Origin: Candidatus Heimdallarchaeota archaeon
GTDB lineage: Archaea; Asgardarchaeota; Heimdallarchaeia; Hodarchaeales; Hodarchaeaceae
Direction: 5' to 3'
Length of the DNA: 32,562 bases
NCBI GenBank assembly: GCA_019057635.1
Contig: DXJL01000172.1
Span: forward strand, 1-32,562
Under the pieces are notes generated by a model, which was not told the DNA's origin, did no database searches, and saw only the letters and a list, made by a program, of their open reading frames with translations. Shown here in pieces: positions 4,994 through 28,456 of the stretch. How positions within the stretch are numbered: position 1 is the stretch's first letter; each line of letters opens with the position of its first letter. The translations under genes and the position numbers were made by a program.

Positions 4994-5374
4994 TTATTTC
5001 AAGCGATCTGGAATACTTTCCCAAATAGCTGAATTTTGTTTTATCAGAAACTCAATAGCATCTGAAAATGTGTACGCAGATGTATTACTTTCAAGTTTGA
5101 GACGACTTAAGATTTTATGAGCATCTGGTCGTAGTAGAATAGTTTTCGAACTTTTAGTTACTTTCCCTTCTCCTGGGATTTTCATTTCAATCCTATGACG
5201 ACCTTCATCAAACTCCTTAAGTTCCTCTTGAAGAGAATGAACTCTGTTCTGAATTGTGCCATCTAATTTGATGAGTACATCGCTATAAGACTTCTCAGTT
5301 AGTTCAAATTTTGCCCAACGAAGCATCTCCCATGCCTTACTCGAAATCTTGACATTTTGAGCTTCTTTCGACAT
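4994..5374 (-). CDS. Tandem ribbon-helix-helix (archaeal VapB-antitoxin-like) DNA-binding protein
   Basis: Two repeats: NVKISSKAWEMLRWAKFELTEKSYSDVLIKL and KTILLRPDAHKILSRLKLESNTSAYTFSDAIEFL. Both fit the T-I-x-(IV)...L...K....S-F-S-D-V-I pattern. Confidence 0.7.
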   Translation of the reverse strand: MSKEAQNVKISSKAWEMLRWAKFELTEKSYSDVLIKLDGTIQNRVHSLQEELKEFDEGRHRIEMKIPGEGKVTKSSKTILLRPDAHKILSRLKLESNTSAYTFSDAIEFLIKQNSAIWESIPDRLK

Positions 5375-5420
5375 TTAACTTGCCTCTTAAAAGAAATATT
5401 GATTATTCCCATATTTATAC

Positions 5421-5500
5421 ATTTCGGGTGTTACGGGTATTTCGTAAGTTTTATAAATGGGTGGGTTACGTAAGTTACATGAGTTCCATGTATCACAAAT
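5421..5500. promoter_or_regulatory. Divergent promoter region with a TATA-like box and 9-bp-period repeats (candidate operator)
   Basis: ATTTCGGGT GTTACGGGT ATTTCGTAA GTTTTATAA (5421-5456) and GTTACGTAA GTTACATGA GTTCCATGT ATCACAAAT (5465-5500). TTTATAAAT lies at about 5450. Confidence 0.55.
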
Positions 5501-5542
5501 AATTGGAACACAATCAATAAATGAAAAAAAAGTGAATAAAAA

Positions 5543-5896
5543 ATGAGTGACTTTGAAGATATAGATTTTGATCTTGAAGAAACATCGTCTGTAAAGGCAA
5601 AAACTCCTGCACAGTCGAAGACACCCGTAACAGGGACTACCTCTGGACCCAAGAAGAATATTTTCTTTAAATCAACCGTTGGCCCTGAGAGAACAGAGAA
5701 ACTCTCCGTCGGTGAAAAAACACCCGTGAGAGATGTCCGAGATACACTAGCGAATATCTTTGGATTAGATCCAGATGATTTTCACTTATCTCATGCTGGA
5801 CGAACTCTTGATGAAAGCTCTCCAATCGGAGATTATGGTATCGAAAATGGTGATGAAATCCTCTTAATTCCTCATTCAACCGCTGGATGGAATTAA
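5543..5896 (+). CDS. Ubiquitin-like modifier 1 (pro-form, ends STAG-WN)
   Basis: Beta-grasp pattern FHLSHAGRTLDESSPIGDYGIENGDEILLIP, compared with ubiquitin [29 protein letters not shown]. It heads the E1/E2/JAMM cluster. Confidence 0.9.
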   Translation: MSDFEDIDFDLEETSSVKAKTPAQSKTPVTGTTSGPKKNIFFKSTVGPERTEKLSVGEKTPVRDVRDTLANIFGLDPDDFHLSHAGRTLDESSPIGDYGIENGDEILLIPHSTAGWN

Positions 5897-5918
5897 TCAG
5901 GGGATTAATTCACTTTTT
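5890..5918 (+). terminator. Hairpin plus T-tract after Ubl1
   Basis: GAATTAATC-AGGG-GATTAATTC is a perfect 9-bp stem overlapping the stop codon, followed by ACTTTTT. Confidence 0.55.
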
Positions 5919-6145
5919 CCCAATTTTTACAAAAATAAAAGGTTGGAAATAATTAAAACTAGATAGAAACTCTTTAATTCCAATTAACTGGCATTTAGTT
6001 GAAAATTCAGATAGATATTTATGGAATGATTACGATGAAACTGATTGTATTCTCTTTACAAATTTTAAGAGCTGGAACACCTCCGAAAGTTAAGGATAAT
6101 ATCTTTCCAGAATTTAGCACCGAGAATACTAGGGAAGACGTAATT

Positions 6146-6499
6146 ATGTCGGAAAATGAAGAGTTTATTGAATTTGAAGAAGAAGAAGGGGAAGAGGGGC
6201 AAAACGATTCATCGATACAATCTAAAGTTTCGCGTTCCAAAGTCCCAAATGGACAACGAATAACATTATTCTTCCGATCAACAATTGGACGCCATGAAAA
6301 ACAAGAAAAACTAACTGTAGATCCAGAATTATCTGTACGGGAATTAGCCGCAACAGTTGGTGAAATATTTGCACTAGATCCACAAGACTTTCACCTTTCA
6401 ATTAGTGGACGAACATTGGATTCGGATGATGTATTGTCAAATTATGATCTGGAAAATGGACTAGAAGTCCTAATTATCCCTGTAAGTACTGCAGGATAA
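6146..6499 (+). CDS. Ubiquitin-like modifier 2 (mature form, ends STAG)
   Basis: Paralogue of Ubl1 (FFRSTIG, IFALDPQDFHLSISGRTLD, YDLENG, IPVSTAG). The start is re-assigned to ATG 6146 (MSENEEF), which gives 117 aa like Ubl1. Confidence 0.9.
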   Translation: MSENEEFIEFEEEEGEEGQNDSSIQSKVSRSKVPNGQRITLFFRSTIGRHEKQEKLTVDPELSVRELAATVGEIFALDPQDFHLSISGRTLDSDDVLSNYDLENGLEVLIIPVSTAG

Positions 6500-6524
6500 T
6501 CCCACTATCAGAGGAGCAAATGGT

Positions 6525-7763
6525 ATGTCAAATTTCACAAGTAAAACACTAACAAATGAGGAAAAACGACGCTTTGATCGTCAATTTCGTCTTCCTGGAT
6601 GGAACCAAGAAATTCTAAAACAAAGCTCAGTCCTCATTGCGGGAATAGGGGGCTTAGGCGTAGAAATAGCTAAAAACTTGGCTATGGTTGGTGTTGGACA
6701 CTTAATACTTGTGGATCTTGATACAATTGAATATTCAAATTTGAATCGTCAGATATTGTTTATTGGTGCACCAGAGGGTGCCTCAAAAGCAAAGATCGCA
6801 GCGAAAAGACTTCGTGAAATGAATCCATTCATCACCATTGATGCTTATGATTGCCCCTTACAAGATGTACCTCCTCATATTTACAGCAAGGTCGATTTTT
6901 ATATAGCTGGTCTTGACTCTATTGAAGCTAGATCTGAATTAAATCGAAGAGCAGTTCATAACAAGAAATATCTCATTGATGCAGGCACTTCAGTGTACAA
7001 TGGCCATGCATATGTAGTTTCTCCGTTCAATAACGCATGCTTGGAGTGTGATCCATTAACTGAACGTAATCAAGATCAGCTTGGAGCATGTACACTCGTG
7101 GGAAAACCTCGTAGACCAGCTCATTGTATTCTTAAAGGACAGTTACACTTCGAACAAAAACACGGAAAACCAGTTAATATTCTAAAGTCAAATGAAGTTA
7201 AAGATGTAGTCTTATACGCAAATAAACTTCTCAAAGAATATTTTCCCCAAGAAGAGCAATTTTCGATAAACCAGATTATTCAGATAATTGATAATCACGA
7301 ACCGACAGTTATCACAATAAATTGCGTAATGGCATCTCTTCAATCACAAGAGGCTGTCAAAATACTACATCATATTCACACACCAGAGCCAGAGAAGAAA
7401 TTGGGGAATATCCAATTAAACTATTTGATTTATAATGGTTTAACGGGTAAATTTTATGAGATTGAAAAACCACGTAATCCCAAATGCGAAATGTGTGGAC
7501 GGGGAAGAACTTCAATATTTCGTATCAAAGTTAAACGAAACTTTCCTTTAACACGGTTAATAGAGAAATTTTCTCATGATAAAAATTACCCGATTGACCC
7601 TGAATTTCCTCCTATGATATTTAGGATTGATTCTTCGGAAATTGGGGAAATATCTATAGAACAAACAATATCTCAAGCTGAAATAAGGGATTGTGAGACA
7701 GTTCTTGTAACTGGTTTTGACGATGGATCACAAGCATATCTTACACTAAAGTTAGAAGGTTAA
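6525..7763 (+). CDS. Ubiquitin-activating enzyme E1 (Uba2/Uba3-like)
   Basis: RFDRQ, GIGGLG, DTIEYSNLNRQ, GLDSIEAR, Zn ligands CLEC and CEMC, catalytic segment ACTLVGKPRRPAHCI (Cys189), and a C-terminal extension where the E2-binding ubiquitin-fold domain is expected. Confidence 0.93.
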   Translation: MSNFTSKTLTNEEKRRFDRQFRLPGWNQEILKQSSVLIAGIGGLGVEIAKNLAMVGVGHLILVDLDTIEYSNLNRQILFIGAPEGASKAKIAAKRLREMNPFITIDAYDCPLQDVPPHIYSKVDFYIAGLDSIEARSELNRRAVHNKKYLIDAGTSVYNGHAYVVSPFNNACLECDPLTERNQDQLGACTLVGKPRRPAHCILKGQLHFEQKHGKPVNILKSNEVKDVVLYANKLLKEYFPQEEQFSINQIIQIIDNHEPTVITINCVMASLQSQEAVKILHHIHTPEPEKKLGNIQLNYLIYNGLTGKFYEIEKPRNPKCEMCGRGRTSIFRIKVKRNFPLTRLIEKFSHDKNYPIDPEFPPMIFRIDSSEIGEISIEQTISQAEIRDCETVLVTGFDDGSQAYLTLKLEG

Positions 7764-7769
7764 TTTATC

Positions 7770-8297
7770 ATGTCTATTCGCATTAAACGTATTGCAGAAG
7801 ATTATAATCAATTAAAAACTCTTTACAAGCAAAAGACGATTAAACAGCTAAAAGCTTTCCCAGGAGAGAAAAAAAGTGTAGAGCACTTAGCTGTTCTTCT
7901 CGAAGGTCCAAAAGGTACTCCCTACCAAGACGGGAAGTTTATGCTCGAAATTAAATTTGGTTCCAATTACCCCTATTCTCCTCCTTTCGTAAGATTACAT
8001 ACCCCGATTTGGCACCCGAATTTTTGGCCCAAACCTGATGAATATAAGGGAAAACGGAATATTTGTCTTGGATTAGTCGACCCCGACTTGGTAGGGAAAC
8101 CACAAGGATGGTCTCCGTCAAAAAATGTTACCACAGTGATATACTCAATTTTAGCAATGTTCAACATTGATGAAGCTTACACTAACCCTCATGATGTTTT
8201 TAACAAGAAAGCTGCGGTGGAATACCTGAAAAATAAGGATAAATTCAAAGAAAAGGCTAAAAAAATCACTAAGAAGTATGCAAAAAAGAAGTGGTGA
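7770..8297 (+). CDS. Ubiquitin-conjugating enzyme E2
   Basis: GPKGTPYQDGKF, YPYSPP, HPN motif, catalytic ICL (Cys99) and WSP motif. Confidence 0.95.
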   Translation: MSIRIKRIAEDYNQLKTLYKQKTIKQLKAFPGEKKSVEHLAVLLEGPKGTPYQDGKFMLEIKFGSNYPYSPPFVRLHTPIWHPNFWPKPDEYKGKRNICLGLVDPDLVGKPQGWSPSKNVTTVIYSILAMFNIDEAYTNPHDVFNKKAAVEYLKNKDKFKEKAKKITKKYAKKKW

Positions 8298-8342
8298 GGG
8301 TTTGAGAAGATTAGTAAAGTACCAGCAAAAGTGGTCTATTTG

Positions 8343-9152
8343 ATGCCAGATAAAAAAAAAGAAAAACCGCGGAATTTATTCGAACTTCTTCTGAGAGATA
8401 CCTCCATGAATTATGATCCAGATAATTTAACTCTTACTTTAAAATTCCCGACTACTGAATCCAAAAAAATTCCTCCTTCAGAGGAGACGTTTTCGCTGAA
8501 AAATGACAGCACTCATGGAGAAGTAGACTTACTCGATATTGATGATTTAGATCCAGAAATCGATCCAGCAAGAGTGAAACTTCAATTAAAAGCCTACATC
8601 CGTCTAAGTCTCCATGCTCTAAAGTATGCAAATTCAACACTTCCTCAAGCAGAATGGGTTGAAGTTATAGGGCTGTTAACAGGACATATTGAGAATAAAG
8701 ATACTCCCCTTGCGTGTTTGGTGATTTCAGACGCATTTCCAGTAGGTCATGGAACAAATGTTAATGCTCAAATCGAGGATCCCCAAAGCATGGTGCGAGT
8801 ATTCAATGAAAGTAGGAAGAAAAATGAACTAATTCTTGGATGGTACCATTCACATCCTTCTTATGGAGCATTTATGAGTACAACCGATTATAGAACACAA
8901 GTTCGCTATCAAAAATTAGGAACTAAAGGATCTCAACTCGCGGCGCCGATTGCACTCGTTATTGATCCAACTAAAATATCCAGAAGAAATTATGGATTTA
9001 AAATCTTCAGGCTAAATAAAGATTTGAAAACATGGGAAGAACCTCGTTATGAAGTTTTAAACTGCCCTTTAGAAAGCCTTCCGGAATTAATCAGCACACT
9101 ACTACCCTTAGCAGAAGGGAAAACAATGTTCTTAGAATATGACTATGATTGA
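8343..9152 (+). CDS. JAMM/MPN+ metalloprotease (Rpn11/CSN5-like deubiquitinase or maturase)
   Basis: EVIGLL, GWYHSHPSYGAFMSTTD (intact E...HxHx7Sx2D) and ALVIDP. The start is either ATG 8343 or GTG 8331. Confidence 0.93.
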   Translation: MPDKKKEKPRNLFELLLRDTSMNYDPDNLTLTLKFPTTESKKIPPSEETFSLKNDSTHGEVDLLDIDDLDPEIDPARVKLQLKAYIRLSLHALKYANSTLPQAEWVEVIGLLTGHIENKDTPLACLVISDAFPVGHGTNVNAQIEDPQSMVRVFNESRKKNELILGWYHSHPSYGAFMSTTDYRTQVRYQKLGTKGSQLAAPIALVIDPTKISRRNYGFKIFRLNKDLKTWEEPRYEVLNCPLESLPELISTLLPLAEGKTMFLEYDYD

Positions 9153-9175
9153 GAAGATGAGGTCGTGAAATCTAT

Positions 9176-10288
9176 TTGGTTGGAAGAAATGTCTATATTT
9201 CCGTATTTCTTACTGGATTGGTCTTTGCGTTCTTAAGCCAAATCGTTAACCCACAGAGCTCTCTCTCGATAACGATAATTTATTTCGCTTTCGTTGCTAT
9301 TTTAATAATCAAACTAGTAGATGAATGGCGTTATTACCGATCATATAATGCTCCACTTGCTTCAGCAATTTTTATTAGTATTCCTGCTCTGATTGCTATC
9401 GGGGGGAGTTTGATTGCATTTACTGCCACATTAGGCGATACGGAAAATTTCCTCCATGCAACATTTATGGAATTAAATTTAAACCTAAATTTATTTCAAT
9501 TAGATTCTTTCTATCTGTTTTTAAATTTATTTAGTCTAATATTTTGTTTGCCCTTCTTTGTAATACTCGGAATTCTAATTAGAAGATACTATTCTGGAAC
9601 CTATCCTAATATTTTCATATTTCGACGACGATTTCCTTCTGAATCAATAATTGTGTTAAATGCAAGTTTTCTTGTAATTTTCACCATTTTTTGGTTAGAT
9701 CAAAAGACAATTGAAATGTCGTCATTATTTTTCTTACTTTTCAGTATTCTAACCTTCATTCAAAATTATATACTCAAATTTGTAATTATTCCCCTTAGAC
9801 GTGTTTCTAGAACTTCCACTAGAGATTTTCAATCACAGAGAAGAGGTGCTAGATCTTCTAGAACACCAGTAGAAACTCGTCGATCAACTTCACAGCCATC
9901 ACGTGTAACCCGAGTACAGGAAAGAACGAGTAGAAGCCCCCATAGATCAAGTGTTCAAGTCGCTCCTCCAATACACATGCCAAAGAGAACAAAGAGGAAA
10001 CTAACTCCTGCACTTATTGCCAGTTTAACCCCAGCAGGTCAGAACATTTCAAAGGACGATTTTCGATGTATTTATTGCTATGAATTTCCCACAGAATCAG
10101 ATAAACAGGTAGTCATTTGCCCTCGTTGTAAACATCCATCTCATGCTGATGAGTTTCAAAAATGGCTTTTGGTGTCTGATATTTGTAGCCGTTGCAATCA
10201 ACCCATTAATAATGTAAAAATGATCCGGATTTCAGGACCCAGTTATCAGAAAATAATTCAAATGTTCCAGAAAAAATACAGAAAATAA
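9176..10288 (+). CDS. Polytopic membrane protein with a C-terminal RING-variant domain (candidate E3 ligase)
   Basis: About six TM segments, an R/S/T-rich linker, then CIYC-x13-CPRCKHPSHADEFQKW-x6-CSRC. Confidence 0.85.
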   Translation: MVGRNVYISVFLTGLVFAFLSQIVNPQSSLSITIIYFAFVAILIIKLVDEWRYYRSYNAPLASAIFISIPALIAIGGSLIAFTATLGDTENFLHATFMELNLNLNLFQLDSFYLFLNLFSLIFCLPFFVILGILIRRYYSGTYPNIFIFRRRFPSESIIVLNASFLVIFTIFWLDQKTIEMSSLFFLLFSILTFIQNYILKFVIIPLRRVSRTSTRDFQSQRRGARSSRTPVETRRSTSQPSRVTRVQERTSRSPHRSSVQVAPPIHMPKRTKRKLTPALIASLTPAGQNISKDDFRCIYCYEFPTESDKQVVICPRCKHPSHADEFQKWLLVSDICSRCNQPINNVKMIRISGPSYQKIIQMFQKKYRK

Positions 10289-10305
10289 GGAGTTATTGAT
10301 TACTT

Positions 10306-10890
10306 ATGGCTATACGACATAATATCGCTTGGTTTATCATGCTCATTGGCGTATCAGCTACTATTTTCTTTTTTATACAAAATCAGGATACATTAGCCCT
10401 TAACATCCTATTCTTATCCGTTTATACTGCGATTACTATTGTATATTTTTTACGGATATTCTACTACGTTGATCATCATGCCACTTTAAACGAAATCTAC
10501 TTTATATCTCTTGCAAATATCATTCCGCTCGCAATTATCCTTGTTAGCCCCCTTTTTCCTATATTTCAAGAAGTTTTATTATCCTTTGAAATAAATATGA
10601 TGCCTTCAAATGAATTCATCGAACTTCATATTGCAGTACCTTCCTTACTTGCTTTTCCGTATTTAGTAGTCTCAACAGCGTTGTTAATACGAAGTTTCAC
10701 TCGCTATCAATTCATTAGAATTACTGCTCAGTCTGAGAGGGGGCCTTCCGCCGAATGGACGGCAATTTTCACTTTTCTTATCTTCGGGATTTTATTTCTA
10801 GCTGCTGGAGCATTTGCATCTGATCTTCTTGGAATATTATATGGTCTCTTTTTCATTTTCTCTGGAATTGGATTTATTCTGGGAAAATAA
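10306..10890 (+). CDS. Polytopic membrane protein, probable paralogue of the E3 membrane domain without RING
   Basis: About six TM segments that align by eye with the N-terminal 200 aa of 9176..10288; 17 bp downstream of it. Confidence 0.75.
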   Translation: MAIRHNIAWFIMLIGVSATIFFFIQNQDTLALNILFLSVYTAITIVYFLRIFYYVDHHATLNEIYFISLANIIPLAIILVSPLFPIFQEVLLSFEINMMPSNEFIELHIAVPSLLAFPYLVVSTALLIRSFTRYQFIRITAQSERGPSAEWTAIFTFLIFGILFLAAGAFASDLLGILYGLFFIFSGIGFILGK

Positions 10891-10938
10891 TCCTTACTTA
10901 ATTTCCAAATTGTTAAAAATCGAGTAAAGTACATTTAA

Positions 10939-11640
10939 TTGAAGAAGTTATTTCTGGAAATAGTGCAGGATAGTATGTTCAAAGTGGCTCGATTCAAAGT
11001 TCGATCAAAAATGCCGAAGGATACAATCAAAGAGAAAACTCCAATGAAAGAAAAAGTTGCTACTATTGATCAAAAAACTCCTAATGATTTGAAAGAGCAA
11101 TTTGAGCTACCTCCTGCGCGAAAAAATGAGCAAGGAGTAATAAAAAAAGAATCTGTTACCCATCCCACTAGTTATGGAACAAAAGAAAAGAGAGAAAAGC
11201 AAATACGTGGCATGAACAAACTTCCTCCTGTTACTCAGACTCAGGGTAGGAAAGAATCGCCAACTCCATCTACTAAAGGGAGTCTCCCAAAATCAAAACG
11301 TAAAAAAGGCCTAGTAAATCGAAAAGTACCAATACGAATAAAAAAAATCCAGGATCATAAAAATATCCCTCCAACTCGGAGAGGTATTGCTGAAAAGAAA
11401 CAAAATCGGATAATAAACAAGACTCCTCCACCTCGCATCACTACAAAAATTCCCAAGAAAACAACTATACCTCCCCCTAGCACACTAGGATCCAAACAAA
11501 AGCACAAAAAAGACATCAGGAGTAAAACACCTCCAAAATCTATTCTAGAAAAAAGACCAATGGAAGAAAAATCAATTCCATCGACTATAATCAAAAAGAA
11601 AATATCTAAAATACAAATAAAAAGGAAAACACCAGAGTAG
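10939..11640 (+). CDS. Lys/Pro-rich, probably disordered basic protein (start uncertain)
   Basis: 233-codon open frame, about 21% Lys by manual count, recurring (T/I/L)PP motifs. Confidence 0.55.
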   Translation: MKKLFLEIVQDSMFKVARFKVRSKMPKDTIKEKTPMKEKVATIDQKTPNDLKEQFELPPARKNEQGVIKKESVTHPTSYGTKEKREKQIRGMNKLPPVTQTQGRKESPTPSTKGSLPKSKRKKGLVNRKVPIRIKKIQDHKNIPPTRRGIAEKKQNRIINKTPPPRITTKIPKKTTIPPPSTLGSKQKHKKDIRSKTPPKSILEKRPMEEKSIPSTIIKKKISKIQIKRKTPE

Positions 11641-11759
11641 GGACTACTTAGTAAGTTGCTTAGGCTAAGTAGGTGAGAATGTATACCTCTATTCAAAATC
11701 ATATAAACACGAGACCAGTACTCTCAAATATAATTCCTACTCCCGAAGAGGTGTACATA

Positions 11760-12293
11760 TTGAAGAAGAATTACAAAGAAGCTCTCATCATATTTGTTGG
11801 TGGAATTGGCGTTTTTCCTATATTATTGTCTATTTTTGCTCAACATATAGACTTTGGTTTGGCAATCGTGATAGCCTTTCCATTCTTTCTAGTAGCAGGA
11901 GTCCTAAACGGATTAATTGTTGTAACCTCAAGCAAACCAGGTCCATTAATCCTTAATAAATCTCAAAAGGGGGCAGTTATAACGCTTATTGGAGGTATAG
12001 GGGCGTTTGCTATTTTAATTGGACTTTTTTGGCCAACTATGTCCTTTGGATACACTCTTGTTACAGCTTATGGATTTTTTCTAATTGCGGGAACCTTAGG
12101 AGCATTAATTGAAGAAAGATCAACTTCAGATTATAAAGAACGTTATTATCCACCTGAGAATGTTGATAAGACTTTGAATAAGCAAACATTATCAGATCCG
12201 ATATCTGGTTCACAATGTCCATCTTGTGGAAGGCAATTAGAGGCAGGTAGTATCTTCTGTACACATTGTGGAAAGAAATCTCTCTCTTCCTAG
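11760..12293 (+). CDS. 4-TM protein with an internal duplication and a C-terminal zinc ribbon
   Basis: GAGGTG precedes TTG 11760. Duplicated GGIG.F.IL...F......FF..AG.L..LI halves; C-terminal CPSCG...FCTHCG. Confidence 0.75.
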   Translation: MKKNYKEALIIFVGGIGVFPILLSIFAQHIDFGLAIVIAFPFFLVAGVLNGLIVVTSSKPGPLILNKSQKGAVITLIGGIGAFAILIGLFWPTMSFGYTLVTAYGFFLIAGTLGALIEERSTSDYKERYYPPENVDKTLNKQTLSDPISGSQCPSCGRQLEAGSIFCTHCGKKSLSS

Positions 12294-12940
12294 ATTGTAG
12301 ACTCTAAATGTGGTATAGGATTATTTATTTCAACGCGCTGGAAATTGAAATCAGTCGATTCTTCCTTTTCCACTTTAAAAACCATGATACCAGTATTAGG
12401 CACTGTATATTCTTTTTTCCAGATGTTTGCTAGATTTTTCTCAAGCATCCACAATGCCAACGCTTTAATAGTAATCATATGTGAAACTATTGCGATACTT
12501 CCACCAAAATCAATATATTTATGCAAGATATGTATAAGAGAAGCTTGGGAGCGGTTGTGAACATCAGTTAAGGATTCCCCCTTCGGAAAACGGAATTTTG
12601 TTGGTGAATGCTTCCAAATATTGTACTCCTTTGGAAAATCCTCTTTCACTCTTGATATCACCATTCCTCCCCATTCACCGACATTAATCGATCTAAATCC
12701 ATCAACTGTGATTATATCAGGACTAGTTGAACAAATCGTCAAAAGTTCTGCTGTTTCCATTGCTCGATTGAGAGGGCTAGAAAATATTTTCCTTAAGTTA
12801 ATTTTTTCCCCGAAAAGATAGTCAGCTAATTTTTTAGCCTGGATTTTTCCCTGTTCACTTAAATGAACGTTACTCCATCCCTGAAAAGCTTTTTCTTTGT
12901 TACCTGTACTTTCTCCGTGTCTCATCAAGTAAATTTGCAT
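12290..12940 (-). CDS. Histidine phosphatase (phosphoglycerate mutase/CobC-like)
   Basis: LMRHGES, SSPLNRAMETA, GEWGG, GES and VSH motifs. Confidence 0.92.
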   Translation of the reverse strand: MQIYLMRHGESTGNKEKAFQGWSNVHLSEQGKIQAKKLADYLFGEKINLRKIFSSPLNRAMETAELLTICSTSPDIITVDGFRSINVGEWGGMVISRVKEDFPKEYNIWKHSPTKFRFPKGESLTDVHNRSQASLIHILHKYIDFGGSIAIVSHMITIKALALWMLEKNLANIWKKEYTVPNTGIMVFKVEKEESTDFNFQRVEINNPIPHLESTI

Positions 12941-13101
12941 ATCTCTTTCTCGATTTTATGTGTTTCAACTATCTTTCGAACTGATCAAACTAATCATTTA
13001 CAAATTTTAATAGCCTTACAAACGAGTAAATTCACTAGGTACTTTTTTATGAAGAGTGTACTATTATTATATAATTTTCAGAAGGAGGATTTCAAAAAAA
13101 A

Positions 13102-14964
13102 ATGAAAAATCACAAAAAATTGCTTTTAATCCTTCTCCTTTTACCGATGTTATTAACAACTATTCCTCAAGCCATGGCTCCTGATGATCTTGTATATTTC
13201 CAAGATTTTGAAGTAGATAATGGAACCTGGACTGTTATGAACGGTACATGGGATTTTCTTGATAATAGTCTTAATGGCATTAGTACAAATGAAATGTGGG
13301 ATGATATAGTATTAGACGATACGATCTTCAATATGAGTGAATATACAGTAATCTTTGATGTAAATTTGTTGTCAGGGTATGGAGAAGAACAGTTTCATTT
13401 CATTTTCAACTATTACTCTGGATATGCAGTAATGGAATTAGGATCAACATCGGGATACTCGCACTATATTGATTCTTATGGAGGTTTATATGATTTTGAC
13501 TATCAATTTCCAACGGACAAATGGGCCATTGTACATATGGTTGTAGCTGGTGGACAACTTGATCTCTGGGTAAATGGAGAACCAGTTATCTCAAGTATGA
13601 TGATGAATGTTCCTAATTTAGAGGATGTCGGTTTTGGGTTATATTATAACTCCTCTGCACGATTTGACAATATTCATGTATATACAGGATATCATGCGCC
13701 TCCAGATCAGCCAACTGATGAGACTATTTACTATGATGACTTTGCCAGCTATAATCTTGATCCTTATGTCTGGTATGGAGGACCAGAAGGAAATTGGGAT
13801 ATTGAGAATGAATGGTTGCGTGGATATTATTTCAATAATGTTTCTTCAGAAAGTGGTTGGTTAACAACATCTGGTTTAGAAATTCATGAAGACTTGTACA
13901 GTTACACCATTGAGGTTGATTATGATATTCACAGTGCAAATGGAGATATATTGTTACTTGGATGGCGATTCAATAGTGGTGCAGATGTTCAGTATGTTCG
14001 CTATAGCTATCAGAGAAATGTTCTTGAGTTTGGAGCTCAAAATGAGGTAGGCGATAAATCTACTTTTTATTCCATGCCAATGGAATCACAACTAACATGG
14101 GGACGTTTAATCGTGGCAGTTGCCGTAGAAAGTGACAAACAGATAACTCAGATATTTCTTCAAGAAGAAGAGCTAGAACCCTATATAATTTTCACAAATG
14201 ATGATTTTGGCGTCTTTAAATGTGGAAATATTGGCTTTGGTTTTGATAACCAAGAAATTAACATGGAAACCTTAGTTTTTTGGGATAATATTTGGATTAG
14301 AAAGGGATTTTATCCACCAAAAATCGATGAAAAACCTGATGAGAGCTTTACTCAAGAGGACTTTTCAATTTCAGTTGGCGACACTTTCATCTATAGTTTA
14401 ACTGAATATAGTGGTGCATCGACTGAAGTTGATTTAACAGGATGGTTTCGTAATAAAAACACAGAAGAAAGCATCCCGCTATCTTTAGCTCAGGGAGATC
14501 AACTCAAACTGATAATGTTTGATTTTGTTGAATGGGGTATAGAAGTTGAAATACACAAAAATACAGATGATTATATAGGAAACGGAATTAATAACTTCCT
14601 TTTTCTCCCAATTTATGGAAATCTGTCCAACTTCAAAATGTTCGATAATACTAATTTAGTTGAAGAAAGTGATTATTATCGACTAACATGGAATTATAAT
14701 GAAACTCAACCTTCTGATGACGGAGTTCTCGAATTTCAGTGGAATAAACAAACTGGTGTACTTGAAAAGCTTGAATTAATATCTGGTTCCATTTCTACTA
14801 ATGGCTCTGAAATATCAATCTTCAAATTTGAGCTTATGGAGTCATTCACTGGAGAAACAACTGATGGTACCACCATTCCAAGTCTCTCACCTGGATGGGA
14901 GTTTATCAGCATCATGGGAGTCATTATCTCAGTTCCTATTCTCTCGAGAAGAAAGAGAGTATAA
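13102..14964 (+). CDS. Surface protein with two concanavalin/LamG-like beta-sandwich domains and a CTERM sorting signal
   Basis: Signal peptide; two repeats running from Y.DDF...G.W to G..GFG.......FDNI; C-terminal SPGWEF-TM-RRKRV. Confidence 0.75.
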   Translation: MKNHKKLLLILLLLPMLLTTIPQAMAPDDLVYFQDFEVDNGTWTVMNGTWDFLDNSLNGISTNEMWDDIVLDDTIFNMSEYTVIFDVNLLSGYGEEQFHFIFNYYSGYAVMELGSTSGYSHYIDSYGGLYDFDYQFPTDKWAIVHMVVAGGQLDLWVNGEPVISSMMMNVPNLEDVGFGLYYNSSARFDNIHVYTGYHAPPDQPTDETIYYDDFASYNLDPYVWYGGPEGNWDIENEWLRGYYFNNVSSESGWLTTSGLEIHEDLYSYTIEVDYDIHSANGDILLLGWRFNSGADVQYVRYSYQRNVLEFGAQNEVGDKSTFYSMPMESQLTWGRLIVAVAVESDKQITQIFLQEEELEPYIIFTNDDFGVFKCGNIGFGFDNQEINMETLVFWDNIWIRKGFYPPKIDEKPDESFTQEDFSISVGDTFIYSLTEYSGASTEVDLTGWFRNKNTEESIPLSLAQGDQLKLIMFDFVEWGIEVEIHKNTDDYIGNGINNFLFLPIYGNLSNFKMFDNTNLVEESDYYRLTWNYNETQPSDDGVLEFQWNKQTGVLEKLELISGSISTNGSEISIFKFELMESFTGETTDGTTIPSLSPGWEFISIMGVIISVPILSRRKRV

Positions 14965-17702: not shown

Positions 17703-18339
17703 CTATCTAGTTAGGAGCTTGAAGGCCATTTCTGATCCATAACCTTGTTGATAAGCCATAGAAATCCATAGCATTCCCAATAGTTCTAGGTAGCGTGCTT
17801 GGGTCAAGGGTCCGACATCTACAACATTGAATCCTAAATCGTTTGCAAGCTCACCCACCACTTCCTTTGAGCTTGCATCATCTCCACAAATAAATGCATC
17901 TGCACATATTCCATTGAAGTCTAAGTTTCCCAAAGTACCCATACCAATACTGTTGAATGCTTTGACGACATGAGCTTGTGGGAATAATCGTGTAATTTCC
18001 TCTGCTGCAGAAGTGCTCAAACCTACTGATAATCCCTTCAATTCTGGTAGAACAGGATTTGTACAGTCAATAATAATTTTATCGGAGAGGTCTCCAAGTT
18101 GACGAGCTACTTCATCTATACTGGAATACGGAATTGCTAATACAATTATCTCTGAATAGTCACCTATTTCATTAACAGGTCTTCCGTGAATTTTAAACGG
18201 ATATTTTTTCTTTTAGTTTTAGAAAATTTGGATTCTGTTTATTATGTAAACCATAGCGTATTTCACGGCCTTTTTCTACCTATTGTTGACCTAAGATTTT
18301 GTCAACATTACCTACACCAATAATACTTATTTGTTTCAT
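17703..18339 (-). pseudogene. NADPH-dependent F420 reductase-like oxidoreductase, disrupted
   Basis: From ATG 18339: MKQISIIGVGNVDKILGQQ*VEKG..., with TAG at 18280-18282 and a frameshift near the A6 run at about 18204-18209. It continues IIVLAIPY...IIIDCTNP...SAAEEI...VVKAFN...CGDD...DVGPL..ARYLE. Confidence 0.85.
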
Positions 18340-18669
18340 AGTGACTGCAAGTAGCGAGGAGTACAAATACGTACTTCTGAGGATTTCGGAAAAACGAAAA
18401 AAAGCCATTTATTCCTACATAGGCGATGATATCCTCCTCAGATGCGATGAAAGATTGAATAAATATTTTTAAAGTTACATCTGGATTGAAAAATTGACAC
18501 CAATTCTTTGTTATTCATAACTATTTAGAAATCCAAAGAATTAATCGAAAATTCATTGAATCCTTAAGGTAATTGGACTGTAAATACAAAAGAGGGTTGT
18601 TTGGTTACCTTTAAGTTTACAAATATAAATCACTAAGCAGTTTTCATAAAATAAACTGTAATTTATGAG

Positions 18670-19158
18670 ATGAGTAGTATGGTTGAAATAGATCACGGAT
18701 TTACCACAGATATGAAATATGCGATTGTAGGAACATTTACTGGAGGACTATCCAGCAAAGGATTTCGACTTTTCAAATCAGGGTCGGAAGACTCTTGGTA
18801 TTGTGTTAATAAGGTTTATCCTGTTGTTGAAGATAAAGAATCAGTAGAAGGTGAACCTACTTATCCTACACTAAAATCTCTTCCTGAACCAGTAGATGTA
18901 GTCATCGTAGTCCACAAGAAAGAGTTAACAACTGAGGTTGTGAAAGAAGCGGCCAATTTAAATCCAAAACCAGCAATCTGGTTTATGCCAGGAACGATTT
19001 CAAAAGAGAGTATTGCGATCTGTGATAATAATGGAATGAGCTATGGGTCATCTTGTATGATGGGTCATAGAAAAATACCCGGACTTAAACGATTTGTAAA
19101 TATTCATTTTTTCCATTCTAAAGTCAGTGGGATGAATCGCATTCCTAAACAATGTTAA
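18670..19158 (+). CDS. CoA-binding domain protein (YccU-like)
   Basis: VYPV...VEGEPTYPTLKSLPEPVDVVIV and AIWFMPG. Confidence 0.8.
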   Translation: MSSMVEIDHGFTTDMKYAIVGTFTGGLSSKGFRLFKSGSEDSWYCVNKVYPVVEDKESVEGEPTYPTLKSLPEPVDVVIVVHKKELTTEVVKEAANLNPKPAIWFMPGTISKESIAICDNNGMSYGSSCMMGHRKIPGLKRFVNIHFFHSKVSGMNRIPKQC

Positions 19159-19415
19159 TAAATGATTCTCGTAGGAGAAAATGACTTGACAACCCCTTTT
19201 TTTTGAAACGAAACCGTGACATTCTTCATTTCCTCAACCAAATAAGTATGACACTCATCCAAATAATGTGTCTTATTCCGATAGCTGGGTACGTTATAAA
19301 CTAGGAGCGTAAGGGGGTACTTGAAAGTGACCACCCTCTTTTGTGGAGAAATTATCTCAACATAGGTTGGAGTTGAAAACCCATTCCCCCTTCGAAGTAT
19401 ACCAAGAAACTTCCG

Positions 19416-19814
19416 ATTCGTGACATTTACGTAATCCATGAATCAGGTTTATGTTTGGTATCGAGGCACTATTTTACTGGGGATTCAGAGCCAAATATGA
19501 TCAGTGGATTTCTTATCGCTATGGCGAACTTTGCTGAAAGAATCATGGGAGAAGCAATTCAAGAAATAAAACTCGATCAACATCTAATAATCTATAAAAT
19601 TATTAGACCTATTCTTGTAGCAATTGTTACAAATCCACAACGTGTAACTAAACGAAAATTAAACATGTTAATGAAAGTGATCTTGACCCAGTTTTTTGAA
19701 GAATATGCAGGGTATCTCCAAGAAGGATTAATTGAACCTAGTATATTTTCTGAATTCGAGGGTTCCCTTGATAATATGCTAAAAGTTTGTTTTGCCATGA
19801 AACAAATAAAATAG
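19416..19814 (+). CDS. Stand-alone longin-like domain protein (start uncertain)
   Basis: In-frame upstream IRDIYVIHESGLCL, then MISGFLIAMANFAERI, IQEIKLD and F.EEY, resembling Asgard longin/AP-sigma-like folds. Confidence 0.7.
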   Translation: MRDIYVIHESGLCLVSRHYFTGDSEPNMISGFLIAMANFAERIMGEAIQEIKLDQHLIIYKIIRPILVAIVTNPQRVTKRKLNMLMKVILTQFFEEYAGYLQEGLIEPSIFSEFEGSLDNMLKVCFAMKQIK

Positions 19815-19834
19815 CGAAAAATGCTAATTTTTAT

Positions 19835-20134
19835 CTAAGCTGCTAATGAATCTAACAAACTGATTATAGCAATTAGAATCCCCACAATAAATACTCCAGT
19901 CCAAGCTAATAACTTGACAACGTTATCTCCTAATCCTACTGGAAGATATGGAGTGAAAAAAGGTATATTTTTAACTGCTAGCAATACCATTGCTATAGCT
20001 AATAAGATAATTGCTCCTAATATTGCTAATAAAGAAATTGCATAAAGAGGATTGTCCTTGTTGAGTGTTCCTGGCATTATCATCAATGTAATTGCTACTA
20101 AAACAACGTAAAGGATTGATTCTTTTTCTTCCAT
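19835..20134 (-). CDS. Small 3-TM membrane protein
   Basis: Three hydrophobic segments; AGGTG ribosome-binding site upstream. Confidence 0.65.
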   Translation of the reverse strand: MEEKESILYVVLVAITLMIMPGTLNKDNPLYAISLLAILGAIILLAIAMVLLAVKNIPFFTPYLPVGLGDNVVKLLAWTGVFIVGILIAIISLLDSLAA

Positions 20135-20161
20135 TTTTTCACACCTTATGTAAGTTGAATT

Positions 20162-20452
20162 TCATATGAGATTGATCTGTCTAGAAGATTTACTTAAAAT
20201 AAATTCAATCTTATTTTTTCCATATCGCTTAATACCTTTCTGCCAAAGATCTTGTGAATAAGCTATGACTCTTTTTCTGAAATATATAGCTAACGCAAGA
20301 AGAATCACACTTGGAATTCCAATCATACCTATATACAAATTCGGGATACTTGAGTTTAAAGGAGCTGGATCATCACCACCCGACCAGCCATCATTATCTG
20401 TGTCAGAATCTAGAGGATCAGTTCCAATAGAAAATTCTTCTGAATCATTCAA
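20162..20452 (-). pseudogene. C-terminal fragment of a surface protein with a TSP3-like Ca-binding repeat and TM anchor
   Basis: NGLNDSEEFSIGTDPLDSDTDNDG..DPAPL then a TM helix and RKR. No signal peptide, and the frame begins mid-repeat. Confidence 0.55.
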
Positions 20453-20615
20453 ACCGTTTGTGTTCGGTACTATACACTAATTCCCTTATAAGATCCGATA
20501 AAAATACAAGCGATAAAGTCTAAAAAAAAGGAATCCCTTAGGAATATTTATTCTCAAAATCCTCCATTAAAAGCTTTATAAAGGATGATCTTCCCTAAAA
20601 GAGGTTGATTTTGGA

Positions 20616-23600
20616 ATGCAATCTGAGCGTGAAAGAATGTCTGATAAAAACCCTAATATTTTTAAATCAGCTCTAATCATACTTTTTTTAATATTTACTT
20701 TGATTCTTAATTCCTCATTACCTAGCACCTTTGAGATAAGTCATAATACTGATATAGAGAGTTTACTTTCAAACAATACTTCTCATGCAAAGGTTAAACC
20801 TCCTTCTGAAAGCATTAAGGATGGTCCTTTTGAATTTATGTTCCCTGAAGATCCTACAGCGGAATTTCAAGCAAAAGTCACTTCTCATGGACCTTCAACT
20901 GAAAAACCATCTCAAACCGTTGGTACGATTAATATTGCTGTAATCTTAATCGAATTCAAAGGATTGAAACATTCATCTGGTTATACACCTAATTATTATA
21001 GAAATTTGCTCTTTAATCATAATAATCCTAAAAGTACAGCAAGTTATTACTATGAAAATTCCTATGGAAAACTCAATATATCAGGGGAGATACTAGGCAA
21101 TAAATGGTTTCAATCTGTTTATTCTAAGCAATATTGGGGTGAAGATAATGGTTTAGTATTCCCCAATGTGGATAATAAAAATGACCACATTTATAATCTC
21201 GTAAAAGAAAGTGTTCTACTAGCTGACCCAGCTACTAATTTTAGTAGATATGATGCAGATGGAGATGATAAAGTAGATCATCTTTTAGTCATTCATGCAG
21301 GTGATGCTCAAGAACAAGCGGGAGGTCTCGCAGAGGATATTTGGTCACATAGATGGTGGATTCCAACTGGATGCCTGGTAGACGGTGTAACTGTAAAAGA
21401 ATATACAATGTGTGCCGAAACATCCCCAATAGGAACATTTGTTCACGAATTAGGCCATGATATAGGAAATTTACCCGATCTTTACGATGCAGATTATACC
21501 TCTGACGGAATTGGAAAATGGGGGGTGATGGGTTCAGGAGCTTGGAATTATAATGATACAGTAGGGTCAGGTGAGAAACCTGGTGATACCCCCGCTCAAT
21601 TTTGTGCCTATTCCAAGATTAAAATGGGATGGGTGATTCCTAAAATCGTCACCATCAATACTCCTAGTCTAATACTGCCCGCTATAGAAATTACAAGTAA
21701 AGGAAGTGTTTTGAAAATATTTCTCTCAAATGCTTCAAAAAGTGTAACTTTGAAAGAGTATTTTCTGGTGAGTTATCGGACACAGGTAGGTTTTGATAAA
21801 TTTATACCTGGTACTGGTATCCTTATATGGCATATTGATGAATGTTCCTTGGAAGAAGAAAATAACAATGAATACCGAAAACTTGTGGATTTAGAAGAAG
21901 CTGATGCTATTGTCGATGGATGGGAGCAGTTAGACTATTATAATAGTTCTCCTATCAATGCTACTATTCCAGATGATGAAGGTTCTCCTACGGATATCTG
22001 GTACCCCCTAAGTACTTTTTCTCATAGTTCTTTCCCAAATAGTGACAGCAATGGCGGAGTCTTCACAAATATACAAATTAATATCACGGGGGTGAATACA
22101 ATCGATATCGGAGTAACAGATGATCCTTTTCCGTGGGATTATACCCTTCAACTCATGAGTCAATCCTCCCCTTCTTTCATTGATGATGAACCAGCAATTG
22201 TAGAACATGGATCCCGTACGTTCGGAGTTAGTAGAGAATTTTCCGTCGTCTGGCATACAAATCGCTCTGGAAATCGTAATATTTGGGGTTGTCAAACTCT
22301 AGACGCAGGATTAACTTGGAAAACTCCTGTGGCAATAACCACAAATTCTGCAACTGATTTAAGTCCTTCAATGATTGTCGCTTCCCCACCAGCTTTTTGG
22401 ACTGGAATTTATGAAGCAGATCGGCCAATACAAAGTTGGCAGCTCGGCCCCAATGCTAGACCACCTCCTCATTTTGTAGTCGCATTCGTATCAGATCGTA
22501 CGGGTGATCCAGAAATATTTGTGACACTGAGTGACGATTTCTATACATGGAGCCACCCTGTTCAATTAACCAATAATACAGGGGCCGATGTTGACCCATG
22601 TTTAGTGCAAACGTCTTCTGGTATCGGTTTATTTTGGGCTGCTTATTCAAATGGAGATTTTGAAATATGTTTTATGGAAAATATATGGAATACTTCTAAT
22701 ATTGTCCAAATCACACAAAACTCATTTTTAGATCGTGGCCCCTCCTATTGTCGAACTCGAAATAATACACATTTACTAGCATATGAACACAATTCAGGAG
22801 GAAATTCAACAGTCCACTTACTTAGAACTAATGATATTTTATCATGGCCTACAACTTCTATTACATGTACCAGTCCAACTGTGGTTTCTACAGAAGTATC
22901 TTTACTTGAACGGGACGATCACACATTAGTTCTTACTTTTACGAGAATAAATCCGAACTTTGAAGAAATTCATCAGGTAATATCTTCTAATTGGATTCAT
23001 TGGAGCCCACATTTGGTAATGGGATTTCTTAAGAATGCTAGTAGTCCCAGTGTCATTGAAGCAGAATGTGGTTCTTTATTCATGAGTTATAGCTCGTACA
23101 ATTACTCACAGATTCACCATGTGTATCTAGTGCATACGACTCAATGTTTCAGGTTTGGAATAGGAATAAAATACCCCAGTGATACTGGGTCATCCTTTTT
23201 CGATCCCTATCGAGTTGAACAAAATAATGAATGGGTATATTCTGGAGACATGCAACTAAACGAATCCGATTTCGTTGCGGCCTCTGGGAATATTAACATT
23301 ACTTTTTATGATACACATAATACGGAGACTGAAGATGACGATCAGGGTATGGACTCACGTTCCTTTGATAATTCTGAGCCTTTTATTAATATTGATCCAG
23401 TCGTAGGGGTCGGAATTTTTAATATTTCATCCTTCCTCTTACCAATTCCTGCAGATTTGACGTTAGCTCAAACTTATCGTCTTGAGGTTGAATGGGGATA
23501 TACAGGTTTGGACTTTGAGTTTCACTCTGTGTCAGCATCAATGTATTTTGAAATAATACCACCAGATGATCATATTGTGTTCTCTGCAAATGATCCTGAA

Positions 23601-24461: not shown

Positions 24462-24563
24462 TGTTTCATGTTCGAATATTTTCGAAATCATGAGTATCTA
24501 TTCATCAGGAGAGCAGGAAAATCAAAATCATCAGTGTTTGGGATATCCCAAGAAGATCCGATT

Positions 24564-24679
24564 CAAGTAGTCCCAATGGAAAGCAACCATTCTCTTGTTG
24601 CTCACCTGCCGGATAGCGAATGTGTGACTCATCCTGTCCAGAACTATTTGCTAAATAGTTGTCTGACAAATTTAGTCAT
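24564..24679 (+). ncRNA. Orphan omegaRNA scaffold plus element right end (copy B)
   Basis: Homologous to 15837-15951 over about 115 nt; no recognisable TnpB RuvC or Zn-finger coding sequence upstream. Confidence 0.65.
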
Positions 24680-25316: not shown

Positions 25317-25384
25317 TAACTCACCGTTCTGAAAGACTTACCCAAAATGGACAGCAAGGAATAATTTGGAAAGATTATTCTTAA

Positions 25385-26557: not shown

Positions 26558-26697
26558 CATCTAAATTAACCTAGTTAAGTAGATATATTCATAAAGTATG
26601 AATATCTCTGGATTCAGGTTGATTCTTTTTTTCCATGCTTAGCAAAGATCTAGATCCTCAAAATTGACATTTAAAAGAGAAAGAGCAGAGATGTAAG

Positions 26698-28385: not shown

Positions 28386-28456
28386 AATAGTATTGAGATT
28401 TTTACCACGATATATAGTTTTAAAATACAAACAGGGATAGATGAAGATGACGGAAA

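Follow-up and report, generated by a model that had tools for sequence, protein, structure and literature searches.

The question of how ubiquitin systems came to comprise many modifiers and hundreds of ligases is still open, and one place to address it is the Asgard archaea, which, with Hodarchaeales foremost, are the nearest relatives of eukaryotes known so far. Here we analyse a gene cluster on contig DXJL01000172.1 of Candidatus Heimdallarchaeota archaeon, which is contig C150 of a 3.19-Mb assembly with 91.6% completeness. The window, as we use the term below, is this whole stretch of 32,562 nucleotides (nt), and coordinates are positions in it unless another contig or locus is named. Seven open reading frames (ORFs) at 5543-10890 encode two ubiquitin-like modifiers (Ubl1 and Ubl2), an E1, an E2, a JAMM metalloprotease, a membrane RING-like protein with predicted transmembrane (TM) helices, called RING-TM below, and a second membrane protein, called the partner. 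The locus raises the question of whether these genes form a ubiquitin-type system of their own or a variant of the operons already described from archaea. Our answer is that they probably encode a working Ubl conjugation pathway, similar in type to those of eukaryotes and Caldiarchaeum and directed to the cytoplasmic side of the cell membrane, and that its core cassette extends across the Asgard phylum.

A complete set of conjugation parts

The seven genes are listed below, with E-values given after the names of the Pfam families.

5543..5896, plus strand: Ubl1; Pfam ubiquitin 1.2e-08 and Rad60-SLD 2.6e-05; acidic N-terminal tail with two SKTP motifs, a beta-grasp domain and an end that reads STAG plus WN.
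6146..6499, plus strand: Ubl2, a paralogue of Ubl1; Pfam ubiquitin 1.3e-03; ends exactly at STAG.
6525..7763, plus strand: E1 activating enzyme, 412 residues; ThiF 2.5e-52; adenylation domain, catalytic Cys189, two CxxC pairs and a C-terminal extension.
7770..8297, plus strand: E2 conjugating enzyme, 175 residues; UQ_con 2.8e-27; HPN motif and Cys99.
8331..9152, plus strand: JAMM/MPN+ metalloprotease, 273 residues; JAB 4.7e-15; N-terminal extension of about 90 residues.
9176..10288, plus strand: RING-TM, membrane RING-like candidate E3, 370 residues; sub-threshold Pfam RING matches only (zf-RING_16 0.015, Prok-RING_1 0.051).
10306..10890, plus strand: partner, RING-less membrane protein, 194 residues; no Pfam match; paralogue of the membrane domain of the candidate ligase.

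A first-pass annotation, made from the sequence alone, had described seven co-oriented genes with intact catalytic motifs in E1, E2 and JAMM. All seven ORFs were indeed present on the plus strand at these places, with gaps of 25, 6, 33, 23 and 17 nt from Ubl2 onward, and the motifs could be located: in E1, GxGGxG at 40, CxxC at 172 and 321 and Cys189 within G-A-C-T; in E2, HPN at 82-84 and Cys99; in JAMM, HSH-x7-S-x2-D at 173-186. Among the collected orthologues, Cys189 and both CxxC pairs of E1 are invariant in 32/32, HPN and Cys99 of E2 in 31/31, and the H, H, S and D residues of JAMM in 35/35. Sequence, conservation and models together establish what these parts are and that they are intact.

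Among solved structures, E1 has its strongest matches to the active adenylation domain of UBA1 (1.7e-34), to UBA3 (1.5e-28, over residues 30-326) and to SAE2 (6.7e-27), with MoeB (1.1e-23), ThiF (2e-19) and UBA5 (3.7e-12) far behind. E2 is canonical, and its best solved relatives are Ubc13 (6.1e-17), UBE2R2 and UBE2T. Between its HPN motif and Cys99 lie 14 residues, several more than in standard E2s, and a comparable insertion is found in the E2 encoded on contig C82 of the same genome. The JAMM protein is closest to the Caldiarchaeum Rpn11-like protein (CsRpn11, structure 6fju; 1.5e-12), followed by CSN5 and Rpn11. CsRpn11 trims a ubiquitin precursor to its C-terminal Gly (PMC6043591). Since this enzyme is the closest solved relative, the cluster's JAMM is by analogy likely to mature the Ubl precursors and to remove conjugates.

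Modifiers that end in Ala-Gly

The listed ORF of Ubl2 (5999-6499) opens at a TTG at 5999, but the ATG at 6146 gives a protein of 117 residues that is collinear with Ubl1 and all orthologues; the two modifiers share 47% identity. Both were first described as STAG-ending modifiers without a Gly-Gly (GG) terminus. Both do carry STAG, but Ubl1 has WN beyond it, so that STAG does not stand at its very end. The STAG of Ubl1 is kept in the window and in 13/13 orthologues, followed by WN, WR or nothing, and that of Ubl2 is kept in 14/14 orthologues, six of which have 1-3 variable residues after it. None of this group has a GG terminus, STAG (Ala-Gly) being invariant in 27/27 Hodarchaeales orthologues of Ubl1 and Ubl2. 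In the other Asgard families, the Ubl that adjoins E1 likewise ends in STAG plus 0-2 residues (14/14). Because an invariant STAG is followed by freely varying tails of 1-3 residues in both Ubls and in other Asgard families, the pattern reads as the signature of precursors that would be trimmed to a C-terminal Gly.

Ubiquitin was the top match when a profile of the STAG Ubls was compared with solved structures in the PDB. Among 20 STAG Ubls, Pfam ubiquitin matched all (best 1.1e-08), Rad60-SLD matched 17 and Ufm1 matched none at E up to 10; the Rad60-SLD score of Ubl1 was 24.4 bits against a cut-off of 23.8. In the Ubl tree, Ubl1 and Ubl2 form separate clades with supports of 99/99 and 100/99, the Ubl1 branches being much shorter than those of Ubl2, and both are nested in one group together with the single Ubls from two further families of Heimdallarchaeia. 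Since the two clades lie within a group containing single Ubls, the duplication is, as judged from the tree, an event specific to Hodarchaeales.

Two side observations concern these modifiers. All STAG Ubls open with a conserved acidic Phe motif (Met-Ser, Asp/Glu, Phe, Asp/Glu, Asp/Glu, Leu/Phe/Ile; 5543-5600 and 6146-6210 in the window, and loci L023-L041) that resembles a short binding motif, and a metagenome protein of the partner family, P0187, has a similar acidic Phe/Asp tail at its end. Further, larger Ubl-domain ORFs lie near the cassette in Loki-type genomes (L023:14207-15809, L024:3592-4895, L026:14675-16429, L033:11752-12657 and L021:1437-2644); some have a long N-terminal region and then STAG or SRAG, in frames of 263-585 residues, and others have no terminal Gly.

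The same features invite the reading that the modifiers are orthologues of UFM1 (or SUMO) and that the cluster is an archaeal ancestor of that eukaryotic pathway. In UFM1, removal of a two-residue tail exposes a single C-terminal Gly, as trimming would in Ubl1. The flexible N-terminal tail, with lysines in a short recurring motif, is reminiscent of SUMO, as are the Rad60-SLD matches and the E1 of the C82 set, which is closest to SAE2. Against this, besides the absence of Pfam Ufm1 matches among the 20 Ubls, no match to Ufm1 better than E 0.38 was obtained genome-wide, ubiquitin came first for the Ubl profile, the E1 match to UBA5 is far weaker than that to UBA1, and E2 is a UQ_con protein that keeps HPN, a motif that UFC1 lacks. 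On these grounds we rejected membership in the UFM1 family. As for SUMO, the STAG terminus is not GG, the E1 of the cluster is a single chain encoded by one gene whereas the SUMO E1 is a heterodimer, and the best relatives of E2 are those named above and not Ubc9. A 2026 paper does report Ufm1 homologues in nine Asgard clades (PMC12962969); in the accessible part of its supplement, however, the Asgard Ufm1-like proteins are a Loki protein of about 84 residues and a Ufm1-Ufc1 fusion, which by description look like another family. Taken together, we regard a UFM1 or SUMO origin as very improbable.

A candidate ligase embedded in the membrane

The AlphaFold2 (AF2) model of RING-TM, with a predicted local distance difference test (pLDDT) score of 77.3, has predicted TM helices at 2-24, 30-57, 65-80, 118-140, 156-176 and 181-210 together with two beta-hairpins in region 1-210, then a disordered Arg/Ser/Thr-rich linker (211-273) and a compact C-terminal finger (289-369, pLDDT 83-90). 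The polytopic membrane protein of the first-pass annotation is thus real, with a RING-like finger by model and fold matches, and it is not a small soluble RING: the finger makes up the last ~80 residues of a 370-residue protein with six predicted membrane helices. The positively charged loops lie on the same side as both termini, and on this positive-inside reading of the model the finger would face the cytoplasm.

As modelled, the finger adopts a RING/U-box fold. In Foldseek, U-box and RING domains were the top matches with probabilities of 0.99-1.0 and TM-scores of 0.5-0.7 (target-normalised), at E-values of at least 0.04, and in VIA the finger matched 3lrq with Z 8.7 over 75 aligned residues (root-mean-square deviation, rmsd, 4.2). 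The Pfam families zf-RING_2, zf-RING_16 and Prok-RING_1 gave sub-threshold matches in 20-23 of 30 members of the RING-TM family. Across 27 phylum-wide sequences, C298, C301, C315, C318, H323, E326, W330, C337 and C340 are invariant, with the spacing C-x2-C-x13-16-C-x2-C-x4-H-x2-E-x3-W-x6-C-x2-C, that is, seven Cys/His ligands and a Glu at position 6. Over 46 residues, the finger shares 30% identity (E 4e-07) with a 70-residue small RING encoded elsewhere in the genome. Because this small RING has His where the finger has Glu, and the same position is taken by H, E or D in more distant relatives that match in the RING only, we read E326 as the putative sixth metal ligand. W330, four residues past ligand 6, occupies what we take to be the usual position of the E2-contacting Trp in RING-E2 structures.

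These features also have to be weighed against the view that the 370-residue protein is no ligase but a zinc-ribbon membrane receptor or the main substrate, with E2 conjugating without an E3. The Pfam RING scores are all sub-threshold, up to 13 of 30 family members give weak zinc-ribbon matches, the finger has no more than seven standard ligands, and the Lys-bearing disordered linker could itself be a target. However, the fold matches are mostly RING/U-box E3 domains, the similarity of the finger to the small RING of the genome is significant, the Trp four residues past ligand 6 is invariant, and the RING-TM gene directly follows the JAMM gene in 19/19 regions from other Asgard families (see below). 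A protein without ligase function is in our judgement quite improbable.

The membrane domain evolves fast, with 12-28% identity to Loki-type sequences. A chain of HRD1-SEL1L-XTP3B was considered as a relative of this domain (VIA-wide Z 7.8, 115 residues aligned, rmsd 3.8) and was set aside as noise because unrelated helical proteins reach equal Z. Hrd1, Doa10/MARCH6, the MARCH family and Pex2/10/12 also carry a RING on the cytoplasmic side of a multi-pass membrane domain, which is a functional analogy only; between their membrane domains and that of RING-TM, no relationship in sequence and no convincing one in fold was found.

A RING-less paralogue as candidate partner

The second membrane protein was first described as a membrane partner, and its gene lies directly downstream of RING-TM in 18/19 related loci (defined in the next section). 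A direct BLASTP comparison of the two proteins gave no significant match (E 0.14), and the kinship is visible with profiles only. In hhalign, the two families aligned collinearly over 124 columns (E 2.6e-04, probability 42%), and the RING-TM profile, which contains no partner sequences, matched three partner-family proteins at library-wide E-values of 5e-09, 3.5e-06 and 6.5e-06, at profile positions 4-195. The order of secondary structure in the partner model (pLDDT 70) is that of the membrane domain of RING-TM, namely three helices, a beta-hairpin and three helices. From the collinear alignment, the independent profile matches and the shared order, we concluded that the partner is a RING-less paralogue of the ligase membrane domain. 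Matches to the partner in the ESM Atlas scored only 0.81-0.82 and are leads at most.

The partner gene is confined to Heimdallarchaeia. It was found in 51 of 400 Asgard genomes, all from four families of the class to which the window belongs (18/21, 2/2, 24/31 and 6/12), and was absent from all other Asgard families among these 400, including 0/135 genomes in the family f20. Beyond the genus of the window there were 32 partner matches, 25 of them within ~500 nt downstream of RING-TM on the same strand and 3 elsewhere; the remaining 4 were unpaired in the tables. It is a reasonable inference that RING-TM and the partner would form a heteromer. Some eukaryotic membrane RING ligases act as complexes of related membrane subunits (PMC9279156 and PMC5811209).

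Distribution across Asgard archaea

For loci related to the window, one genome per species was scanned, which yielded 56 pattern matches, 19 of them confirmed. The full order Ubl1-Ubl2-E1-E2-JAMM-RING-TM is present in 13/19; the remaining six are truncated where their contigs end, except L021, which holds a divergent version with extra Ubl frames. The RING-TM protein of the window is 94% identical to a protein from a metagenome-assembled genome (MAG) labelled Heimdallarchaeota B3_Heim, and other close relatives are labelled Hodarchaeota/Hodarchaeales.

We then compared the phylum as a whole. At E <= 0.001, the RING-TM profile matched 239 of 400 Asgard genomes, the weakest matches being RING-only, and full-length frames of ~370-400 residues occur in many families, including 21/21 genomes in the family of the window and 117/135 in f20. 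In 19 regions drawn from nine other Asgard families, JAMM and RING-TM are adjacent in every case (19/19), and the full collinear Ubl-E1-E2-JAMM-RING-TM cassette is present in 13; in two of the others Ubl, E1 or both lie a few kb away, and the remaining four are truncated where their contigs end. Identity to these families is 56-66% for E2 and 43-53% for E1. The idea that the cassette is a peculiarity of one lineage therefore fell, since the core order of Ubl, E1, E2, JAMM and membrane RING spans the phylum. While the core cassette is pan-Asgard, the second Ubl and the partner gene are the only parts restricted to particular lineages.

Against 1.84 billion representative proteins, the RING-TM profile gave 262 matches at E <= 0.001 and 99 at E <= 1e-30. 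Ten of the matches were looked up and four of these were named, three from Asgard MAGs and one from a 'Euryarchaeota archaeon', all recorded as 'hypothetical protein'. The RING-TM family appears to be confined to Asgard archaea. We also noted a metagenome protein, P0132, an orthologue of RING-TM over its full length (E 2.2e-54), whose MAG bears the label Euryarchaeota/Methanobacteriota; either this bin is an Asgard one with a wrong label, or the protein is a rare occurrence beyond the phylum.

This distribution bears on a further explanation, an antiviral defence system of the Bil, CBASS-Cap2 or 6A-MBL kind. Defence systems are usually patchy in distribution, whereas this cassette is near-universal and syntenic in whole families (the 21/21 and 117/135 above) and is flanked by ordinary metabolic genes. 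E1 does have weak matches to the PADLOC Cap2 'E1-E2' models (best 2.3e-17) and to NCBIfam 6A-MBL cap2_3 (1.2e-08), but these cover the generic ThiF core and are far weaker than the UBA1 match. No PADLOC match was found for E2, the Ubls, the partner, the Lys/Pro-rich protein or the small ribbon-helix-helix (RHH) protein described below, JAB matched weakly (4.8e-05), and RING-TM had one marginal match (PDC-M18B, 0.0012, residues 158-223). With PADLOC matches that are generic or marginal, a near-universal distribution and metabolic flanks, the defence-island reading was rejected, and we hold it to be extremely improbable, even though bacterial Ubl-E1-E2-JAB operons act in phage defence (PMC10557695 and PMC11601596).

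Three separate systems in one genome

The genome behind the window holds four UQ_con matches, five ThiF matches and further ubiquitin-family matches. One set lies on contig C20 (~18154-30312, locus L042) and consists of a ubiquitin ending in GG plus IVR, a 346-residue E1, an E2, the 70-residue RING (which passes zf-RING_2), a UEV/UQ_con protein, VPS28 and small GTPases. A third set lies on contig C82 (~9965-13914, locus L043:1965-5914), with a 109-residue Ubl ending in KGG (Rad60-SLD 1.6e-05), a 412-residue E1 whose best solved relative is SAE2, a SUMO E1 subunit (3.8e-32), a 183-residue E2 and a 190-residue JAB protein; it also includes a 262-residue protein with an N-terminal CxxC…CxxC motif and no Pfam match.

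The E1 of the window is 36% identical to that of C82 and 32% to that of C20, and the E2 of the window is 31% identical to that of C20. We built hidden Markov models (HMMs) from phylum-wide orthologues, leaving out the window and its nearest relative. With the E1 model, the protein of the window scored 691 bits and the two paralogues 313 and 194; with the E2 model, the corresponding scores were 334, 100 and 56 bits. The first-pass annotation had proposed a different system, open to refutation if its genes grouped within characterised operons; such grouping is not borne out, as the ESCRT-linked GG set coexists in the same genome and the HMM scores part the sets. These comparisons support a cluster distinct from the characterised type with GG-ubiquitin and small RING.

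The ESCRT-linked Asgard cascade of ubiquitin, E1, E2 and RING has been described by Hatano et al. 2022 (PMC9192718) and in bioRxiv 10.1101/2023.07.25.550441. The C20 set, its counterpart here, belongs to the same phylum and enzyme classes and has a homologous RING finger, but its RING is soluble and carries His at ligand 6, its modifier ends in GG and ESCRT genes lie beside it, whereas the window has a candidate membrane ligase. Similarly, the Caldiarchaeum subterraneum operon (PMC5654768, PMC6043591, PMC3082918), which has been reconstituted in vitro, combines ubiquitin, E1, E2, a small RING finger protein and JAMM; its E1 has a ThiF core and a catalytic Cys, its E2 is of the UBC type and its modifier precursor is trimmed by the JAMM enzyme. 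Our cluster differs in that the modifier ends in the Ala-Gly of STAG and has a conserved N-terminal tail of ~40 residues (an acidic aromatic motif and two SK[T/I]P motifs), that the RING forms the C-terminal part of a membrane protein with six predicted helices and has Glu at ligand 6, and that a RING-less membrane paralogue in Heimdallarchaeia and a second modifier in Hodarchaeales are added.

It may still be argued that the cluster is simply the known Asgard/Caldiarchaeum ubiquitin operon, with the AG end and the membrane RING as trivial variations. The same five kinds of part are present, and JAMM is closest to CsRpn11. Moreover, Asgard E1, E2, ubiquitin and deubiquitinase genes have been catalogued by InterPro domain as eukaryotic signature proteins (ESPs; PMC9192718), and the genes of the cluster are probably already counted in such domain-based tables. 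However, the characterised type (GG-ubiquitin, 70-residue RING, VPS28, UEV) coexists in the genome, the orthologue HMM bit scores differ two- to six-fold between the three sets, and the reconstituted archaeal systems use GG modifiers and a soluble RING (PMC5654768 and bioRxiv 10.1101/2023.07.25.550441). Nor did the full-text literature, as searched apart from the early ESP tables (Spang 2015, Zaremba-Niedzwiedzka 2017, Liu 2021) and preprint supplements, yield any account of Asgard archaea with a RING in the membrane, a STAG modifier with a single Gly or the SK[T/I]P motif, and the RING-TM records are 'hypothetical' in every named case. We consider the known operon an unlikely explanation. What is new here is the partner as a RING-less paralogue, the Hodarchaeales duplication of the Ubl, the invariant Glu at a ligand position and the recurring SK[T/I]P motif.

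A motif shared by the modifiers and a neighbouring protein

Directly after the partner gene lies a further gene:

10939..11640, plus strand: Lys/Pro-rich protein with 21% Lys, probably disordered, with six K[T/I]P motifs; syntenic in 16/19 related loci.

In nine orthologues of this protein the tripeptide KTP was observed 33 times, against 3.8 expected from shuffles. The N-terminal tails of the Ubls carry this motif too, as S-K-T/V/I-P, twice at fixed positions after the acidic Phe motif, both in Hodarchaeales and in other families. At least four copies of K[TI]P were present in only 2 of 2484 frames of at least 150 residues in the genome of the window, the Lys/Pro-rich protein being one of the two, and at least two copies of a stricter five-residue form in 3 of 5084 frames of at least 80 residues. 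A non-Ubl ORF with at least two motif copies lies beside the cassette in 17/19 related loci and in 9/19 regions of other families. The latter regions total ~277 kb, for which the rate in the window's own genome predicts ~0.3 such ORFs, against the 9 regions seen. Loki-type motif neighbours have 280-400 residues, are rich in Lys, Glu and Arg, are probably coiled-coil and carry the motif at both termini; in two Heimdallarchaeial families the neighbour is again Lys/Pro-rich, with KxKIP repeats. The motif is not general to the proteins of the cluster, since K[TI]P is nearly absent from E1 (1/32), E2 (0/31) and the partner (0/18) and occurs only sporadically, at non-aligned positions, in JAMM (14/35). 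This recurrence suggests that SK[T/I]P may serve as a docking site or as the mark of acceptor lysines, in which case the neighbouring protein would be a dedicated substrate or adaptor.

Extent of the conserved unit and neighbouring genes

Upstream of Ubl1, two more features belong to the locus:

4994..5374, minus strand: small RHH-type protein, divergently transcribed; two ribbon-helix-helix-like halves; weak match to Pfam VAPB_antitox (4.1e-05) and MatP_C RHH matches.
5375..5542: intergenic region of 168 nt, with a TTTATA box between GTTACG-type repeats.

The RHH gene lies upstream on the opposite strand in 11/19 related loci and also in a genome of family f2 (locus L031), and its product is a candidate transcription regulator of the cluster. 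The intergenic region contains a direct repeat (5440-5450 / 5466-5476) in a block kept in 9/9 aligned loci of the genus, and may be read as a regulated promoter, with 5375..5542 as candidate promoter plus operator. Ubl1 and Ubl2 are 249 nt apart, and because this spacer includes oligo-T runs, Ubl1 may have a transcript of its own. The extent of 5543..10890 first given for the cluster was right about the seven genes but too narrow for the whole unit: because the upstream RHH gene and the downstream Lys/Pro-rich gene are also syntenic, the conserved unit is about 4994 to 11640.

The flanking genes encode a peroxiredoxin, a histidine phosphatase, a methyltransferase, lipid-synthesis proteins and an M6 peptidase, and no ESCRT genes are among these neighbours. 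The M6 peptidase domain, of the immune-inhibitor-A type (1.5e-22), belongs to a protein of 1281 residues at 20616-24461 and is unrelated to the Ubl cluster. Immediately after the Lys/Pro-rich gene, 11673-12293 encodes a membrane protein with a C-terminal zinc ribbon (Zn_Ribbon_1 2.6e-06); it is syntenic in only 3/19 loci, those of the three closest relatives, and is probably outside the system.

Proposed pathway

The biochemical steps that we infer for this probable membrane-targeted pathway are the following. JAMM would first trim the Ubl precursors (e.g. Ubl1-WN), exposing the terminal Gly of STAG, which the single-chain E1 would then adenylate, loading the Ubl onto Cys189. From there the Ubl would move to Cys99 of E2, and the loaded E2 would dock on the RING-like finger, which is tethered by the disordered linker to the six-helix membrane domain. 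In Heimdallarchaeia, this domain probably pairs with the RING-less paralogue encoded by the next gene. The Ubl would finally be transferred to lysines of membrane-located proteins, a modification that JAMM could reverse. As candidate substrates we propose the SK[T/I]P protein encoded beside the operon and, within the Ubl N-terminal tails, the lysines of SK[T/I]P; modification of the tails would give rise to chains. An ERAD-like role in quality control or trafficking, offered as a possibility in the first-pass annotation, gained no support from these data, nor did they speak against it.

Several points weigh against this proposal. We know of no case in which an E1 of this type was shown to activate an Ala-Gly C-terminus. 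The finger reaches the gathering score of no Pfam RING family (15.4 bits at best, where 27.4 would be required), the Foldseek E-values of its RING matches are weak, the VIA Z of 8.7 is barely over the noise range of the tool, and a Glu stands where a Cys or His ligand is expected, so that zinc binding there is putative. For the membrane domain, Foldseek returned no known fold and the ESM Atlas no usable match. The partner model is of moderate confidence, and its hhalign probability is low, as given above. The background rate of SK[T/I]P comes from one genome only, and an HMM of the Lys/Pro-rich protein found no match to the Loki-type neighbours or to those of families f4 and f6, so that the motif neighbours are not demonstrably homologous across families.

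A more specific version of the proposal, which we would call possible but unlikely, is a pan-Asgard membrane-anchored system that uses SK[T/I]P lysines as acceptors, builds chains through the Ubl N-terminal tails as SUMO-2/3 do, and has the neighbouring protein as its dedicated target, tethered or cross-linked beside a heterodimer of RING and RING-less membrane proteins.

Significance

If this more specific version were true, the archaeal ancestors of eukaryotes would have had a second ubiquitin-type pathway, independent of ESCRT and with a built-in substrate, whose target was perhaps a scaffold associated with the membrane. The broader pathway is compact: its enzymes are small and soluble, its motif is clear and one candidate substrate is defined. 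The proposal is directly testable. One genome holds three complete Ubl/E1/E2 sets, and the phylum-wide one already has a putative membrane-embedded RING ligase, joined in one class by a RING-less paralogous partner, an arrangement otherwise familiar from the ligase complexes of eukaryotic organelles. If the pathway works as proposed, both the diversification of modifiers and membrane-localised ligation would predate eukaryotes.

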